DNA of 64,000 bases from a virus (taxonomy: Duplodnaviria; Heunggongvirae; Uroviricota; Caudoviricetes). Of the stretch, positions 11,937-57,806 are shown one piece after another. How positions within the stretch are numbered: position 1 is the stretch's first letter; each line of letters opens with the position of its first letter. The position numbers and the translations under genes were made by a program. The notes under the pieces are model-generated. The model had not been told where the DNA came from and did not search any database. It saw only the letters and a program-made list of their open reading frames with translations. The stretch lies in the IMG/VR virus record IMGVR_UViG_3300006033_000017; one strand, written 5' to 3'.

Positions 11937-12686
11937 ATGCTACCTCGTTACCAGTCACCGAACTACCGCCTAATACACGGTGATTGCCATGACACGCTCA
12001 ATGATTTGAAGGGGTTGGAAGCTCGCCTTGTCCTTACTGACCCCCCATATGGTAAGGTCCTCAAAGATGACTGGGATCAAAGCGGACATATTACCGATCA
12101 ATGGTGTAAGCAAATCAAAGCAGCCTGTACACCTGATGCATCTATATATGTTTGGTGTGGCATGGGGGAGAAATCTCGTTCATTAGTTGAATTTATCCAG
12201 GTGCTCGATAAACATTTTACATTCAAAGATCTAATTACTTGGCAAAAACGACGCGGCATTGGTATGCGTCGAGGATGGCTATATACTCGCGAAGAATTGC
12301 TTTGGTATGTTGTAAACCCTAAAGACTTCGTGTGGAACAAAGAAGCCCAATACTCTGATGAGCCCAACGCATTCAAAAAGGGTATGAGTGGTACGCAAGT
12401 TAATGAGAAGAAGCGTATCACGAATGTTTGGACTGATGTTCCTGAGCAACTAAAGAAGCCTCTTGGTACTCACCCTGCCGATAAACCGATACAAGCACTA
12501 AAACGAGTCATTGCAGCGCACACTGATCCGGGCGATCTCATTCTAGACCCATTCTGTGGGGGCGGCTCTACACTTATTGCTGCTATGCAAATGGGTCGAA
12601 TGGGGTTTGGTATTGAAAAAGATGACCATTGGGCCGAATACACAAAGACTAGGCTAGAGGCAGAATGGGAAAAATCGAATGATTAA
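11937..12686 (+). CDS. DNA amino-methyltransferase (N6-adenine or N4-cytosine, beta class)
   Basis: DPPY catalytic motif near the N-terminus and LILDPFCGGGST (AdoMet motif I) near the C-terminus. Confidence 0.8.
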   Translation: MLPRYQSPNYRLIHGDCHDTLNDLKGLEARLVLTDPPYGKVLKDDWDQSGHITDQWCKQIKAACTPDASIYVWCGMGEKSRSLVEFIQVLDKHFTFKDLITWQKRRGIGMRRGWLYTREELLWYVVNPKDFVWNKEAQYSDEPNAFKKGMSGTQVNEKKRITNVWTDVPEQLKKPLGTHPADKPIQALKRVIAAHTDPGDLILDPFCGGGSTLIAAMQMGRMGFGIEKDDHWAEYTKTRLEAEWEKSND

Positions 12687-13695
12687 TTGCCATACTCACA
12701 CCTTCAGCATTAACAATGTCCCAGATGATTTTCTCCCCCTCAAACTCAGCAAGTTGAGCAGGAACCCTTTACTCCGAAAAGTCATCATCCGACTTCTCCA
12801 AATGAATGACCCCTTAACTGCGCGCGATATCGCTGAACGTTTAGCAACGTTCATAACGCTAATGAATCAAGAATCACAAGCTGATATCTTTGATAATCTT
12901 GCCAGTAACTACCCCAAGGGTACTAAGTTTGTAGTGCTCCCGATGGATTTTGAATTCTCGGGCTATCATCCTCCACATACATCTACTGAAACCCAACTTG
13001 GCATACTGAAGTCGCTTGCCGAAACTCGCCCCATTATCCCATTCTGCCCTGTCGATCCCCGCCGCCCAGACATCATGGGTTTTGTAAAGAAATGGATCGA
13101 AGATAAAGGGTTCGCGGGATTGAAGCTATATCCCGCTCTTGGCTATGAAGTCAATGATTCCCGTCTTGATCCTGTATATGAATATGCCTGCGAGAACAAG
13201 ACACCTATCATTACTCATTGTGGAGGTACCTCAGTTAGAGGAAAACATACCTCAGAAGCTGACGCATACGCCAAGAGCTTACCATATAAATACATTTCGG
13301 TATTAGCAAGGTATAATGAGCTTCATCTATGTTTCGCTCATTACGGTGGAGTAAAAGCTTGGCAAGCAAAGTTGGGTTTAATCGACTCCTGTGAAGATTC
13401 CTGGGTTGATTCAATCTCTAACCTTATGAAACAACACCCTAATGTTTATGCAGATATTGCCTACACTATCTTTACACACCCGTCATTCTATAATTACCTC
13501 AAAGTCTTGATGACAGATGCGACACTAAGCAAAAAGATTCTGTTTGGAACAGACTTCCCACTAGCCAATCTAGAAGAGCGAACGGAGAAACAAGTATCGA
13601 TTGATCTCCGCGCGGTACTTGGCGAGGATTCATGGAATATGATTAGCGAGTTAAATCCAAGACAATTCCTTGGTGTGAAAAACACCTGCGTTTAA
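12679..13695 (+). CDS. metal-dependent amidohydrolase (amidohydrolase-2 / TIM-barrel hydrolase family)
   Basis: N-terminal INCHTHTF (HxH metal ligands) and C-terminal LFGTDFPL (family signature); ATGA overlap with the methyltransferase stop. Confidence 0.5.
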   Translation: MINCHTHTFSINNVPDDFLPLKLSKLSRNPLLRKVIIRLLQMNDPLTARDIAERLATFITLMNQESQADIFDNLASNYPKGTKFVVLPMDFEFSGYHPPHTSTETQLGILKSLAETRPIIPFCPVDPRRPDIMGFVKKWIEDKGFAGLKLYPALGYEVNDSRLDPVYEYACENKTPIITHCGGTSVRGKHTSEADAYAKSLPYKYISVLARYNELHLCFAHYGGVKAWQAKLGLIDSCEDSWVDSISNLMKQHPNVYADIAYTIFTHPSFYNYLKVLMTDATLSKKILFGTDFPLANLEERTEKQVSIDLRAVLGEDSWNMISELNPRQFLGVKNTCV

Positions 13696-27488: not shown

Positions 27489-27707
27489 TTACCACTCATC
27501 ACGGTGCTCCTGTAATACCTTGATTGCTAACTTGCATCTCTGAATTGCTTCGGTAATAACCTCATCGGTCGCTTCTTCACGATACTTGTGTAGGACTGAG
27601 GCAACACAACCCTTTAACTCGGCTTCACCTATCTTGTAGAGGGAACGAGTTCCCATCGGTGCTAATTCTTGCATCATATAATACGCAAGCTTCATTGATG
27701 TCATCAT
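27489..27707 (-). CDS. hypothetical protein (72 aa)
   Basis: ORF overlapping the Thg1-like gene stop. Confidence 0.35.
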   Translation of the reverse strand: MMTSMKLAYYMMQELAPMGTRSLYKIGEAELKGCVASVLHKYREEATDEVITEAIQRCKLAIKVLQEHRDEW

Positions 27708-28471
27708 ACTTCTGCCTTCAGAATTGGCTCCGCGCCACGGAATACAACATCTTCCCTATTCGCGATGCGAGTCATAATAGGAATTGATAGTTGATGATAT
27801 TCTGAGCGTTGATATGTTTCACCAGTATCAGCTTTAGTGTGAAAAACTGGTACCTTCCTGAAATACGCACCACGCTTCAAGTGATCCGCATAATCATTCC
27901 AGTTAATGCCCTTCTGAAAGATCATCTCCTGAAGAGCATCGCATTTCTTGCCCTGCAACGCAGAGTGACTATAGAGACTCTGCGCAACCATCAAGATACT
28001 GTTGCGAACCGCATCGACTTCACGCCAGATCAAGGCGTTAGTGGCTTCATATTCAGTTGGGACGCTCCATACACGGCAATCAAACAAAGGGTTCAAATGC
28101 GCTTTCTTGGGAAGATAGGTCGGCAGTTGCTTGTTAAAGAAAACCGACGCCATACTTGCTAACAAAGAAGTCATCTTGGCAACACGACCATCAAAGAAGA
28201 TCTTGCGCTCAAAATCATCCTGTTGCCAAATTAGCGTAATTTCATCAGATTGTGTGTAAGAAATAACAGCATGAGTTTCTTTCACAAGATACTTAGCCGT
28301 TTCATGCATCAATTGCCGCAAATCATCATCAAATGGGCGCGCAAGGCCGCGACAAAATGAGTGAAATGCCTTACCATCTAGACGTGCCATGGCGGGCGCG
28401 AGCGGCATGAGTCGCGCTTGCGGGCCACAGTACAGGTTCTCATAGTATTTCATTCTATCCGACAGATCCAT
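27704..28471 (-). CDS. Thg1-like protein (tRNA-His guanylyltransferase family; 3'-5' nucleotidyltransferase)
   Basis: MARLDGKAFHSF ... ISYTQSDEITLIW aligns to the Thg1 catalytic core RLDGRNFHRF / AYGQSDEYSF; colinear similarity over the whole length. Confidence 0.8.
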   Translation of the reverse strand: MDLSDRMKYYENLYCGPQARLMPLAPAMARLDGKAFHSFCRGLARPFDDDLRQLMHETAKYLVKETHAVISYTQSDEITLIWQQDDFERKIFFDGRVAKMTSLLASMASVFFNKQLPTYLPKKAHLNPLFDCRVWSVPTEYEATNALIWREVDAVRNSILMVAQSLYSHSALQGKKCDALQEMIFQKGINWNDYADHLKRGAYFRKVPVFHTKADTGETYQRSEYHQLSIPIMTRIANREDVVFRGAEPILKAEV

Positions 28472-34645: not shown

Positions 34646-35845
34646 CTAAGCATTTTGCAATGTCTCGAATATCCGCGAATCTATAGGTTTGAAACCGGCA
34701 CCGTAAGGTCCGGTAAGGAATCGATTCAAAATATTCTTACTCGCGTTTGTATCCGCATTGTCTCCATGACCACAACTGAGACACAAGAACACCTCTCCGT
34801 TTCGATTCCTCTTATCGACATGACCACATAGCGGACAGGTGATACTGGTATTATAACACGAAACGGTTCTGAAGGAAACACGGTTTTCTTCACACCCCAT
34901 TTGTACCCGGTCTAACCAATATCGCCATACCCAACTGCCGATAACTCGACGCATACTTTTAGAGAGGCGTCGTCTCTCCTTTGCCTTATGGTTCAGATTA
35001 GATAACTTCTCCACAACCACAAGATCAATACTTTTATTAGTTACGATCTGCCTCGTAACTTCGTCTATTCGTTGTTTCAAGGCCCTACGAGCTTTCTTTT
35101 GGCCTTTCGATCCCTGATTACAACGATTGACTCTGTTCACACAATCTTTAATATCTCTACCTAATTGCTCTCCAGTAGAGAATGAAGCCAAAGCATTAAT
35201 CCCAGAGTCTATACCGATAGCATTGAGCCCCGTTTTCTTTGGACCAGTTTCAATCTCGAAACAGAACTGAACACTATCTCTGGTGATAATGTAGCTATTC
35301 AGTCTTGTTCCCAATTGATTCCATTTGTTGAAATGCTTGTGTTTTTTAATCGGAAGATCCATCACAATCTTATTGCCAATTGAAGCTAGATGCAACCAAG
35401 AATCAAATTCTGATGCTGCCTTTGAAGCCACTAACTTAGCAATGTTACAATTGGCGCAAATTCTATCTCCTTTGTGTGTCGGCTTAACGGGCTTGATTGT
35501 TTCTGCTTTTTGTCTTAATTGATTGGCCTTAACTTCGTATTTAGCTCTTTCTGCTTTGGCTAATAATCGTTTTTTCTCATTTTTGGCTTTCTCTTGAGAA
35601 GAATTAATCAGATCAATAGCTTCTCTTGCACAGACCTTTCTCATTCTATGAGAAAACCAAGAATCAGGGAGGTTGATTATATCTTTGAGCAAGTCTGCTT
35701 TTGTCGGGCATTTATCTAGTGCCCAGAAAGAATCAATGAAGATATTGCAGAGTCTTCCGTATTCGATCAACACAATGCTAAGCTCCTCTCTCTTTTTTAA
35801 GGTCGAGAATTTAAGGGTACATTGTGTTGACCGAATGATTTTCAC
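34646..35845 (-). CDS. tnpB: TnpB (IS605 OrfB-family RuvC-like, putative RNA-guided nuclease)
   Basis: RuvC-I GIDSGINALA, RuvC-II VVVEKLSN, zinc finger CPLCGH...CLSCGH, RuvC-III DNADTNASKNI; N-terminus MKIIRSTQCTLKF is typical. Confidence 0.8.
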   Translation of the reverse strand: MKIIRSTQCTLKFSTLKKREELSIVLIEYGRLCNIFIDSFWALDKCPTKADLLKDIINLPDSWFSHRMRKVCAREAIDLINSSQEKAKNEKKRLLAKAERAKYEVKANQLRQKAETIKPVKPTHKGDRICANCNIAKLVASKAASEFDSWLHLASIGNKIVMDLPIKKHKHFNKWNQLGTRLNSYIITRDSVQFCFEIETGPKKTGLNAIGIDSGINALASFSTGEQLGRDIKDCVNRVNRCNQGSKGQKKARRALKQRIDEVTRQIVTNKSIDLVVVEKLSNLNHKAKERRRLSKSMRRVIGSWVWRYWLDRVQMGCEENRVSFRTVSCYNTSITCPLCGHVDKRNRNGEVFLCLSCGHGDNADTNASKNILNRFLTGPYGAGFKPIDSRIFETLQNA

Positions 35846-45728: not shown

Positions 45729-46493
45729 TTACACCTCAACGTGCAATAGCTCAGATATAGCAAGGCCGCGCCACTTGGTCTTACCAGTTTCGCCGCTGCA
45801 AACCCTATGCATATCTGCAAACCACCAATGCGCAGGCTCCAATACCATCAACAATGTATTGAGCCAACCACGACTTGGTTGTTCCTTAGGATCCAAGGGT
45901 GTAATACCGGGAATCTCGAATCTAGCAGGAGGCTGATGGGATAGAACAATGTCAACCCCACCCACTGCTTCGACATTAGCAATGGCTTTATTGATTTGCT
46001 CCTCGCTAATAGTCTCCTCTTGGAACCATGTATGAACTGCCTTCTTGGGGAAATACCTCATGGCTTCCTGGAACTTCTTGTTCCTATGTTGCTTGTCCCA
46101 AGGCACAGAATCCCCACCGCCCATAAAGAGTATTTTCGCGCCGTCAATTTCAAGAACAGTACCACGAGGCACATACGTAACAATGCCACCCTCGCTTGTG
46201 TCGCAGGGGCAAGGTGTGGTACCATGATAGATACCGTCTTTGATCATTTGGTATTGATCTTCATGATTACCATCTATCCACAGAAAGTTGACGTGCTCGG
46301 GCACGGTGACCTCTGGGGGCCACACAGGAACCTTATGCTGCCCGGAGGTGAGGTGACGGGGCCAGTAGCCCATTTCGCCCAGGCAGACCAACGTAGCGCC
46401 GTTAGGAGCCGCCTGGGCCACCGTGGTAACGGCGTTCTGGGCCGCAGGCCAGTCCGCGTGGATGTCGCCAATGAGGTATAAAGACATGAGCAT
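45729..46493 (-). CDS. calcineurin-like metallophosphoesterase
   Basis: LIGDIHAD (motif I) and WIDGNHED (GNHE motif III). Confidence 0.7.
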   Translation of the reverse strand: MLMSLYLIGDIHADWPAAQNAVTTVAQAAPNGATLVCLGEMGYWPRHLTSGQHKVPVWPPEVTVPEHVNFLWIDGNHEDQYQMIKDGIYHGTTPCPCDTSEGGIVTYVPRGTVLEIDGAKILFMGGGDSVPWDKQHRNKKFQEAMRYFPKKAVHTWFQEETISEEQINKAIANVEAVGGVDIVLSHQPPARFEIPGITPLDPKEQPSRGWLNTLLMVLEPAHWWFADMHRVCSGETGKTKWRGLAISELLHVEV

Positions 46494-52310: not shown

Positions 52311-53213
52311 CTACTGCGTAGGTGCCGGCATCTGAATCATAGGTGTTGCACCACCTACGACCATTGGTTGCTTGCCGTCCCACTTCTCAATAGCAGCCTT
52401 CTGATTCTGAATGCGCTGCCAGTCCACCATGATAGAAGTCAGGCTATTAGTCAACAGAGCGTTAGCCTTCGCCTGACCCTCAGCTTTAACGCGCGCAGAT
52501 TCCGCCTCACCGCGAGCCGACTCAATTTGCTGAGTTGCTACAGCCTTAGTCTCACGGATCTTATTCTCTGCGGCAACAGCCTTGTTGGTCGCGGTAATTG
52601 CGGCAACAATTGACTCCGAAACCTGAGAATCTAGGCGCAGGTCAGAAACAAAACTCACCATGTTAACCTGGAAGCCATCCGCACCTAGACGAGTACTTAG
52701 ATCGTCAGTTACCTGCTTCAGTAGCTCGGCTTTACCTTCACCATAGATCTTTACAATCGGCATCTTCGATGCATGACGACTCAGAGAATCGCGAACCTGA
52801 GAACGCAGATAAACATTCGAGATACCAGTGATATCCTGACGGAACTTCTTGAGGATCGACGGCACCTTGGCTGAATCCAAAGTAAAGGCCAGGGAAACAT
52901 CAACACGGACCAATGCACCCTCAACAGAGTTGAAAGCCATACTCTCATCAACGGGCGCACCTTCATGGGCACTTGCGGTCCAGTTGATCGTCTTCATAAA
53001 GGTCGGGTAACGATAAAGAATGGTAGTCAAAGGATTGTAGAATACGCGACCAGTAACAACTGGCATGTTATTCACACCCTTATTCCCGCCATACATATTG
53101 ACCTTAACGCCAACCCACCCCGGCTCAATCACCGAGGAGCAGAAAAGCAACACACCCAGAGGCATCAACAGAATCACCACTAGTGCGGCGATGATACCAA
53201 TTCGCTTTGTCAT
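52311..53213 (-). CDS. SPFH/band-7 (stomatin/prohibitin/HflKC-like) membrane protein
   Basis: N-terminal TM helix; SPFH-like core; Ala/Glu/Gln-rich coiled coil (AESARVKAEGQAKA). Confidence 0.65.
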   Translation of the reverse strand: MTKRIGIIAALVVILLMPLGVLLFCSSVIEPGWVGVKVNMYGGNKGVNNMPVVTGRVFYNPLTTILYRYPTFMKTINWTASAHEGAPVDESMAFNSVEGALVRVDVSLAFTLDSAKVPSILKKFRQDITGISNVYLRSQVRDSLSRHASKMPIVKIYGEGKAELLKQVTDDLSTRLGADGFQVNMVSFVSDLRLDSQVSESIVAAITATNKAVAAENKIRETKAVATQQIESARGEAESARVKAEGQAKANALLTNSLTSIMVDWQRIQNQKAAIEKWDGKQPMVVGGATPMIQMPAPTQ

Positions 53214-57154: not shown

Positions 57155-57185
57155 TCCAATTGTCCTTCCTGGTTTTTCTCAACTA

Positions 57186-57341
57186 AACGAGAGGGGAGAT
57201 TCGAACTCCCACCGGCGAATGGGCATTCGCCTTTTGCTGTTAATTACGTAGGGGCTTAGCTCAGCATTAGCCCTTCACAGCATTATTCTTCCTTGTATTT
57301 GCAACTACTCGGAAGAAGCTCTATCCAATAAGCTACTCTCG
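57186..57341 (-). tRNA. atypical tRNA-like gene, 156 nt between perfectly complementary acceptor strands (type II-like arm; discriminator U)
   Basis: 5' ACGAGAG-UA-GCUU-AUUGGAUA-GAGC (acceptor, U8, D-arm) and 3' GGGAG-UUCGAAU-CUCCC-CUCUCGU (T-arm, acceptor); GGCGAAUgcccAUUCGCC hairpin in the variable position; no canonical anticodon arm found. Confidence 0.45.
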
Positions 57342-57399
57342 TCCTTTTGAAAGAGCGGGCTCCAATAGTGAGCCTTCTATCTTTCAAACTTGCTCTAGA

Positions 57400-57698
57400 T
57401 GCCCCTGTCTGGAGTTGAACCAGCGTCACCCGGTTATGCTTACCACTATAGTTTTCACTACCAAACAAGTTGTTTGTGGTCTGGACTCTCTCTTCACCAT
57501 AGATTATTATCTTTAGGTGTTCCGTGTTGAGTCTCTACACCTTGCAACTTTCGTTGCCTTGGCTCGGGATTGCCATTTCACAGGGTTCCCCGAATTTACG
57601 GAATAATCACAGCAATAGTTTCCTATTGCCGCGCCCTCTTTTGTGCTTCTAAAGCACGTTAGCGAAGCCGGACGCTCTAACCATTGAGCTACAGGGGC
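57400..57698 (-). tRNA. tRNA with anticodon CAU (Met or Ile-lysidine type) interrupted by a 227-nt group I intron in the anticodon loop
   Basis: 5' exon GCCCCUG-UA-GCUC-AAUGGUUA-GAGC-G-UCCGG-CU (57666..57698) and 3' exon CAUAA-CCGGG-UGAC-GCUGG-UUCAACU-CCAGA-CAGGGGC-A (57400..57438); all stems pair; intron ends in G. Confidence 0.7.
57439..57665 (-). ncRNA. group I self-splicing intron (IC3-like, Azoarcus / cyanobacterial tRNA-intron type)
   Basis: AAAUUCGGGGAACCCUG ... GGCAAUCCCGAGCCAAGG ... GGUGUAGAGACUCAACACGGAACACCUAAAG ... CUAUGG ... GAGAGUCC closely match the conserved P3-P8 core of the Azoarcus tRNA-Ile and Anabaena tRNA-Leu introns. Confidence 0.65.
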
Positions 57699-57777
57699 CT
57701 AATGTATCACATTTTCTATTTTGTTATCTAGGAACCAGAGGGAAGGAACCATCGCCCTTCCCTCACCTCATACCCTT

Positions 57778-57806
57778 ATTATAGCATGGCGGGCCGCGCA
57801 TGTCAA
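57778..57806 (-). promoter_or_regulatory. sigma70-like promoter TTGACA-N17-TgcTATAAT + AAGGGTATG driving the tRNA cluster
   Basis: minus-strand gcTTGACAtgcgcggcccgccatgcTATAATaagggta; leader hairpin GGGAAGG-n9-CCTTCCC at 57741..57763. Confidence 0.55.

Follow-up and report, generated by a model that had tools for sequence, protein, structure and literature searches.

A probable phage elongator tRNA(CAU) gene split at U33/C34 by a compact group I intron

Does this locus encode a tRNA interrupted by a group I intron that can still splice, and, if so, which tRNA would result and on what kind of replicon does it lie? The locus occupies positions 57698 to 57400 on the minus strand of a 64,000-nucleotide (nt) stretch of DNA (the window), which belongs to IMG/VR virus record IMGVR_UViG_3300006033_000017 and is the reverse complement of positions 1-64000 of the 157,149-bp ENA metagenome contig ERZ27247451 k141_1195142. 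It contains a tRNA(CAU) gene, 72 nt long when spliced, that is split by a 227-nt group I intron, and its sequence is 100% identical in three independent assemblies (ENA, Logan and JGI). In our reading, which is based on sequence comparison and in which we have good confidence, the gene would specify a functional phage-encoded elongator tRNA, most likely tRNA-Ile2, whose anticodon loop is divided at U33/C34 by a compact IC3-like group I ribozyme lacking an open reading frame (ORF).

ARAGORN in default mode called no tRNA within the 64-kb window. With the intron search enabled, it placed a 227-nt intron at 33/34 of a 72-nt tRNA(CAU), and the hand-spliced product was called as well. Exon 1 (57666..57698, 33 nt; minus strand, as for all tRNA, intron and promoter features of the window below) was placed by both of these calls and carries the 5' strand of the acceptor stem, the D-arm, the 5' strand of the anticodon stem, C32 and U33. 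Exon 2 (57400..57438, 39 nt) begins with C34, A35, U36, A37 and A38, followed by the 3' strand of the anticodon stem, a variable loop, the T-arm, the 3' strand of the acceptor stem and the discriminator A. The spliced anticodon loop is CUCAUAA on a UCCGG/CCGGG stem; CCA is not encoded, and the bases after the discriminator are TCT. A first-pass annotation of this DNA, made from the letters alone, had proposed a complete split tRNA with these exons, and every element that it listed was found at these coordinates. Its description was amended in two respects: the first T-stem pair (G49/A65) is a mismatch, and the variable loop has 4 nt.

The intervening intron (57439..57665, 227 nt) ends in G (57439) and contains all four core motifs quoted in that annotation. 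Rfam Intron_gpI (RF00028) matched 57662-57463 on the minus strand over the full model length with 60.2 bits, above the gathering score of 50 (E = 8.6e-13), and no other Rfam match was found within the window. Together with ARAGORN in intron mode and the helix model described below, this match bears out the proposed IC-type group I intron after U33 of a tRNA(CAU).

On direct reading of the sequence, U33|C34 is the sole boundary at which the anticodon loop has 7 nt, the 5' splice site follows a U and the intron closes with G. A shift in either direction costs at least one of U33, the 7-nt loop, the U at the 5' splice site and the G at the intron end, so U33|C34 is the only consistent junction. 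The G at 57439 (omega-G) is the terminal residue expected of a group I intron and falls in a column that is invariant in an alignment of 49 introns (A1, see below). An alternative is that the splice sites lie elsewhere, for example at 36/37 as presumably in Azoarcus, and that the anticodon is other than CAU. ARAGORN is known to misplace intron boundaries (PMC13011429), and it did so for the sister gene described below and for many relatives. We nevertheless give this alternative next to no credence, given the singular combination of features at U33|C34, a GGGC guide sequence whose pairing partner is G31-C32-U33 and which changes in step with N31 among relatives, and a 3' junction, G|CATAA, that is common to at least 155 confirmed relatives.

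A helix model from P1 to P9 was drawn on the window sequence and tested on alignment A1, in which 49 distinct introns inserted at this site are aligned together with 10 nt of exon on either side. Standard pairs were formed in 85.2% of the cells, compared with 32-42% when the partners were slid by 1-3 columns, and the covariation score was 0.445 against at most 0.119 in the controls; the observed values were reached by none of 500 shuffles. Moreover, compensatory changes on both sides were found in 46 of the 63 modelled pairs. The core helices by which group I introns are recognised, P3-P4-P6 and P7-P8 with the P3/P7 pseudoknot, were all recovered, with far lower values in the controls. Specifically, the 5' strand of P3 (intron 63-68), J3/4 and the P4-P5-P6-P6a domain (intron 73-127) span 57539..57603, and the 5' strand of P7 (131-137), the 3' strand of P3 (141-146), P8 (147-171) and the 3' strand of P7 (178-183) span 57483..57535. 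Across the 49 sequences, P3 was paired at 94.6%, P4 at 100%, P6 at 99.3% and P6a at 95.6%. P7 was paired at 100%, five of its six pairs being invariant, and P8 at 77.6%, with compensatory changes in all nine pairs.

Outside the core, the P2 hairpin with its GAAA tetraloop (57611..57630, intron 36-55) had its inner 6 bp paired at 84.5%, with compensatory changes in six of six pairs. In the 3' domain (57442..57480), a long-range helix ACCA/UGGU (intron 186-189 / 221-224; 94.9% paired, all four pairs covarying) surrounds the hairpins P9a and P9b, the latter with a GAAA loop. The terminal hairpin P9b was paired at 99.5%, with 16-19 double changes per pair, and P9a is particular to this intron (31% paired in A1). 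The compact IC3 type has P2, lacks a P2.1 or P5abc extension and uses the tetraloop-receptor pairs L2-P8 and L9-P5. In the window intron, inspection shows GAAA on P2, a receptor-like CCUAAA...UAUGG motif in P8 and GAAA on P9b, and P5 is without an 11-nt receptor. As in IC3 introns generally, L2 presumably contacts P8.

The internal guide sequence GGGC (intron nt 30-33; 57633..57636) lies two bases upstream of P2 and forms P1 with intron U1 and tRNA U33, C32 and G31. Intron G31-G32-C33 pairs with tRNA U33-C32-G31, giving a G.U wobble at the 5' splice site. P1 was paired at 96.9% in the 49 sequences, and the pair of tRNA U33 with intron G31 was U-G in 48 of them. The guide base opposite tRNA N31 covaries with it: the pair is G-C in 30 sequences of A1 and A-U in 17, exons ending in ACT occur with GGGT, those in GCT with GGGC, and the single TCT with GGGA. 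Under a crude rule applied to 127 distinct introns, the N31 guide pair was Watson-Crick in 87 and G.U in 11, a result matched by none of 10,000 shuffles. Two other forms of P1, one extended with intron G36-C38 and one of 6 bp with a bulge, were considered and then dropped, the alignment backing only the 4-bp version adjoining P2.

Several observations weigh against the reading favoured here. The exon part of P1 is just 3 bp, and P10 is essentially 1 bp (G30-C34), A29 being unable to pair with A35. The two basal pairs of P2 (31% paired) and P5 (56.5% paired) are poorly supported, and the T-stem begins with the G49/A65 mismatch. In addition, the sequence used for drawing the model is itself part of the alignment, and the percent-paired values, though not the counts of compensatory changes, are inflated by this. 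The intron might thus be a decayed, non-splicing relic and the locus a tRNA pseudogene, as the P10 of about 1 bp, the T-stem mismatch and the weak P5 would suggest. We consider this very unlikely, because the window copy agrees with the consensus in each of the 47 invariant and 29 near-invariant columns of A1 and all its core helices pair. A weak P10 is typical of the whole group, pairing at both A35 and U36 being possible in only 42 of 127 relatives, and since many relatives are equally weak there, it is no refutation. Of the P1/P10 pairing whose failure the first-pass annotation had named as a refutation, P1 therefore passes with covariation, and P10 is weak in the same way as in many relatives.

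A perfect promoter upstream also speaks against a pseudogene. It is of the sigma-70 type with an extended -10 (TTGACA-17 nt-TATAAT plus a TG extension; 57778..57806), matches the consensus at 12 of 12 positions about 80 nt upstream of the tRNA 5' end, and is kept in the sister phage contig L431 (see below). The consensus match and this conservation suggest strong early transcription of the tRNA unit by the host polymerase. Between promoter and tRNA, a leader hairpin GAGGGAAGG / CCTTCCCTC (57738..57764) was read from the sequence, and it recurs in L431 with small changes. No ORF was found in the 227-nt intron, which has stops in all frames and no start codon. With all conserved columns kept and no ORF present, the intron looks intact and free of a homing endonuclease. 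We consider it highly likely that a group I intron, probably splicing-competent, splits this tRNA(CAU) at 33/34.

On this basis, a course of expression can be proposed. The consensus sigma-70 promoter would drive one transcript containing the intron-bearing tRNA and the tRNA-like RNA downstream of it. The intron would fold into P1-P9, as indicated by covariation, and its GGGC guide would pair with intron U1 and tRNA U33-C32-G31, placing the comparatively supported G.U pair at the 5' splice site. If splicing follows the route established for group I introns, a free guanosine docked in P7 would attack after U33; the terminal G227 would then enter the G site, and the 3'-OH of U33 would attack G227|C34, restoring the loop CUCAUAA. 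Since P10 amounts to about 1 bp, it is probably the anticodon stem that keeps the exons together, a role reported for it in the Anabaena pre-tRNA, to judge from the title of ref. 103 in PMC3984707. Maturation would be finished by host RNase P, 3' trimming, CCA addition and TilS. With no homing endonuclease gene in it, the intron is most simply seen as a tolerated selfish passenger that arrived with the tRNA gene or recombined into it.

Which amino acid would the spliced tRNA carry? The first-pass annotation had left its identity open, and the anticodon CAU by itself cannot tell Met from Ile2. Initiator tRNAs are marked by a 1-72 mismatch and by G29-G31/C39-C41; here G1-C72 is paired and the GGG/CCC stem is absent, so the tRNA is not an initiator. 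Its best full-length match in all complete PGAP-annotated E. coli genomes was tRNA-Ile (81.9% identity over 99% of the length). Against E. coli reference sequences, of which the Ile2 one was corroborated by this genome match, identity was 82% to Ile2 and 62% to both Met and formylmethionine (fMet) tRNA. The pairs C4-G69, C5-G68, U12-A23 and C29-G41 and the base A73 are present, which are Ile2/TilS/IleRS elements of E. coli. Additionally, ATA makes up 20% of the Ile codons in the window ORFs. The best E. coli match, the elongator-type body and the ATA usage favour tRNA-Ile2, an identity that we regard as probable and that would depend on host TilS; the tRNA would read AUA once the host converts C34 to lysidine.

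The contrary identity, elongator tRNA-Met, draws on the ARAGORN call of the spliced product as Met and on the records of cultured phages. Intron-less homologues with 81-87% identity are widespread in these phages and are labelled tRNA-Met in most records, including those of the closest ones (Vibrio phage Ceto, 87%, and others); one close homologue, in Vibrio phage VF16, is labelled tRNA-Ile. Because CAU alone is ambiguous, the tRNA-Met labels were not counted as evidence, and they may be defaults. With the E. coli comparisons and the Ile2 elements on the other side, tRNA-Met is a possible but distinctly less probable identity, and tRNA-Ile2 is kept as the favoured one.

The first-pass annotation called the tRNA phage-borne, and the surrounding contig is indeed in all likelihood a large phage. 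The DNA examined holds about 100 tightly packed small ORFs, mostly co-oriented and nearly all without a Pfam match, and no housekeeping genes were found among them. PHROG matches were obtained to phrog_200 (1.5e-60), phrog_4717 (3e-76), phrog_2319 (3.6e-47) and an endolysin amidase; a T4 gp30.3-family protein is encoded just outside the window, and two proteins have their best relatives in large and jumbo phages. Two results weigh on the other side. No capsid, portal, tail or terminase gene was found in the 74 kb examined (the larger ORFs of the window plus 10 kb beyond), so phage origin is not taken as proven. Moreover, P0002 (NCBI MFA6358940.1), a close homologue of a 292-amino-acid protein encoded in the flank of the tRNA locus, is labelled as belonging to a metagenome-assembled genome (MAG) of a Candidatus Omnitrophota bacterium. 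The contig that carries P0002 is 3.5 kb long; it probably stems from a phage and was binned into the bacterial MAG, or else the label points to the host. When 19 kb of the window was compared with deposited phages by megablast, no match was obtained.

A bacterial chromosome segment, a plasmid or another mobile element would account for the missing virion genes, for the MAG label and for the transposon-type tnpB gene in the window, and the same intron arrangement is common in bacteria. We judge such a replicon unlikely in view of the dense, co-oriented ORFs, the strong PHROG matches, the gp30.3-family protein, the relatives in large and jumbo phages and the short contig behind the MAG label. 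Furthermore, bacterial introns at 33/34 are mostly in initiator tRNAs, whereas viral ones, like that of the window, are in elongators.

This last point comes from a pattern scan that combined the P7' strand, the junction G|CATAA and the T-arm and was run on bacterial genomes and on IMG/VR. Junctions of relatives were set by a purpose-made junction finder; the intron positions and anticodons given by ARAGORN were inconsistent and hence discarded. In bacterial genomes, at least 120 loci from many phyla were found, and 107 of the 120 matches listed are tRNA(CAU) genes split at U33|C34. IMG/VR viral contigs gave at least 52 loci, 48 of the 52 listed having this arrangement. The bacterial examples are mostly initiator-like, and nearly every viral one resembles an elongator (34 Ile2-like and 13 Met-like among the 48 listed, judged by the E. 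coli references); 26 of these 48 viral loci sit amid three or more other tRNA genes. The closest intron among the matches listed (L393, IMGVR_UViG_3300047548_001418) is 79.5% identical over 161 nt (intron positions 69-227), and the closest relatives listed reach at most about 80% identity, in the core only. Position 33/34, which the first-pass annotation had singled out, is the standard site of bacterial tRNA-fMet(CAU) introns, and with at least 107 bacterial and 48 viral contigs sharing it, the "striking evolutionary link" once proposed was overstated.

Other phage tRNAs are split as well. A scan of IMG/VR with the IC3 P7 core (L137-L256) gave at least 121 matches; of the 121 listed, 84 fall within tRNA genes split by an intron, for the most part Leu(UAA) and Arg(UCU). 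The 18-mer GGCAATCCCGAGCCAAGG occurs exactly at nine IMG/VR loci, only two of which reach the Rfam group I gathering score, and ARAGORN called no tRNA in any of the nine. The annotated phage matches found by blastn (Pelagibacter phage HTVC120P, phage C739 and Kolpuevirus) lie between split capsid and helicase ORFs and not in tRNAs, and a metagenome scan with the tRNA 3' half returned only two unrelated contigs.

Deposited phage genomes provided further cases. The 735-kb huge phage LR756501.1 contains an unannotated tRNA-Leu(UAA) with a 205-nt intron (L016 1418-1708). In Microcoleus phage My-WqHQDG (OR578706.1; L433 1382-1667), a 286-nt feature annotated as "tRNA-Arg" was read by ARAGORN as Arg(CCU) with a 213-nt intron, with no Rfam group I match at the gathering score. 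In Klebsiella jumbo phage Muenster (MT708547.1, about 302826-303133; L434 919-1226), a 104-bit Rfam group I match falls in an unannotated gap of the tRNA array. The exons, read by eye, join as an ileX-like tRNA(CAU) with a 231-nt intron at 36/37, and the spliced product folds as a cloverleaf, on which ARAGORN made no call; the match is common to four more Klebsiella phage records. In print, a 2014 review placed all phage introns then known in protein genes and none in tRNA genes (PMC3984707), tRNAs of Lak megaphages are said to contain introns (PMC8346664; PMC13037316), and literature searches turned up no account of phage tRNA genes with group I introns. The rarity assumed in the first-pass annotation therefore agrees with the literature and not with the sequence data: by the pattern scans and the deposited genomes, intron-split phage tRNAs are common in data, and they are under-described in print.

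A sister phage bears on how the gene came to its place. The flanking 292-amino-acid protein has one cluster of homologues, with 93% identity and with P0002 among its members, and no related loci in IMG/VR; one member of the cluster lies on the 3.5-kb contig L431 (ENA ERZ27247350 k141_456498). What L431 and the window have in common is the promoter, the leader hairpin, the two ends of the tRNA (12 nt at the start and 6 nt at the finish) and the downstream spacer. Within this frame, L431 carries a different tRNA(CAU) in the same slot (1800-2114), its tRNA body being 71% and its intron 62% identical to those of the window. The L431 intron is 238 nt long (Rfam, 64.6 bits), is inserted after U36 (36/37) and has a GUG guide adjoining P2; the ARAGORN call of this gene as Arg(tcg) was set aside for CAU with the 36/37 site. 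Between the promoter and the leader hairpin, L431 has some 250 nt (1456-1710) that are missing from the window.

The presence of different intron-bearing tRNA(CAU) genes in the same slot of two close relatives suggests that the gene interior was replaced by recombination, as in a cassette swap. A farther-reaching idea would join several of these observations. The slot behind a fixed promoter might be a hot-swap site for whole intron-carrying tRNA genes (33/34 or 36/37), and the intron might be kept for the benefit of the phage, for example by shielding the anticodon loop or tRNA gene from host anticodon nucleases or DNA-targeting endonucleases until splicing, or by timing tRNA supply; the co-transcribed 158-nt tRNA-like RNA with its hypervariable arm may represent a new class of phage non-coding RNA. 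We regard this combination as doubtful.

The tRNA-like RNA in question (about 158 nt; 57185..57343, minus strand) begins 57 bases downstream of the intron-bearing tRNA, presumably on the same transcript. Its parts are an acceptor stem, a D-arm, a T-arm, a 7-bp hairpin at the position of a long variable arm and two further hairpins, and it is without a credible anticodon loop. It folds far better than its shuffles (z = -4.45), matched no Rfam family at E up to 10 and had no relatives in IMG/VR. A transfer-messenger RNA was ruled out by ARAGORN -m, and the intron calls Leu(taa) in the window and Ala(tgc) in L431 were rejected for their poor anticodon stem and the lack of conservation of the anticodon. 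In L431 (2184-2340), the RNA is kept throughout but for one hairpin: the basal stem of that hairpin is retained through compensatory changes, and its interior is unrelated to that of the window.

Elsewhere in the window, a gene for a Thg1-like tRNA-His guanylyltransferase (27704-28471, minus strand) accounts for the phrog_4717 match (E = 3e-76) and has relatives in many jumbo phages. This enzyme could be linked to tRNA repair or to the tRNA-like RNA, which has a possible G-1. The transposon-type nuclease gene tnpB (34646-35845, minus strand) encodes a Cas12f1-like TNB domain and is adjoined in L001 by a small MerR/helix-turn-helix gene. Accessory genes encode an amidohydrolase, two metallophosphoesterases, an SPFH/Band-7 protein, two CTP_transf_like proteins and the T4 gp30.3-family protein (window 12679-13695, 45729-46493 and 52311-53213; L257 11480-12555).

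The window thus presents a well-understood ribozyme in a well-known site, and its direct scientific value is modest. Default annotation misses intron-split tRNAs, as shown by the absence of any call in the window and by the Muenster record, which has no feature at the tRNA(CAU) gap; phage tRNA repertoires, and codon-usage arguments built on them, are consequently systematically incomplete. The statement of the 2014 review, cited to this day, that phage group I introns lie solely in protein genes is out of date, given at least 48 viral contigs with the present arrangement and at least 84 with introns in other tRNAs, and a proper survey of phage tRNA introns would be a small but useful contribution. 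The sister pair, with different tRNA(CAU) bodies and intron sites in one slot, offers a natural system for studying the movement of intron-bearing tRNA genes between phages.

Among known systems, the bacterial tRNA-fMet(CAU) introns of cyanobacteria and other phyla are the closest in position. A 2026 survey of bacterial tRNA introns gives the usual sites as 33/34 in tRNA-fMet, 34/35 in tRNA-Leu and 36/37 in tRNA-Arg (PMC13011429), which makes the insertion site of the window a standard one. The tRNA-fMet introns share the U33|C34 site, the loop CU|CAUAA and an IC-type core with the window intron (PMC13011429), align well with it and follow the same P1 logic, in which a GGGN guide pairs with N31-C32-U33. 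Unlike theirs, the host tRNA of the window is an elongator (G1-C72, no GGG/CCC stem, Ile2-like) on a probable phage replicon. Some cyanobacterial fMet introns encode a PD-(D/E)XK enzyme (PMC13011429), whereas the window intron is without a homing endonuclease ORF. The IMG/VR viral introns resemble it in their elongator tRNA(CAU) hosts, their 33/34 site and their ORF-less length of about 200 nt. They differ in often lying inside phage tRNA arrays, the window having no surrounding array of standard tRNAs and just the tRNA-like RNA, and the P1-loop hairpin (intron 9-23) and P9a are particular to the window intron.

The Azoarcus tRNA-Ile intron is likewise a small ORF-less intron in the anticodon loop of an Ile-type tRNA with CAU. 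Its architecture likewise has GAAA on P2 and, in P8, a motif resembling an 11-nt receptor; the exon part of P1 is also 3 bp, and the core strings are similar. Its insertion site after U36 (36/37), which is consistent with a 39-nt 5' exon, makes it a poor positional comparator for the window, although the first-pass annotation had used it as one. The window intron lies at 33/34 and its guide GGC pairs with GCU, whereas the Azoarcus guide GUG presumably pairs with CAU; the Azoarcus-type site is found instead in the sister phage L431 and in Klebsiella phage Muenster. With the Anabaena tRNA-Leu intron, the window intron shares an IC3-type core and exons that are probably held by the anticodon stem and not by a long P10, as far as the title of ref. 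103 in PMC3984707 indicates. Unlike the window intron, that of Anabaena is inserted at 34/35, in a class II Leu tRNA.

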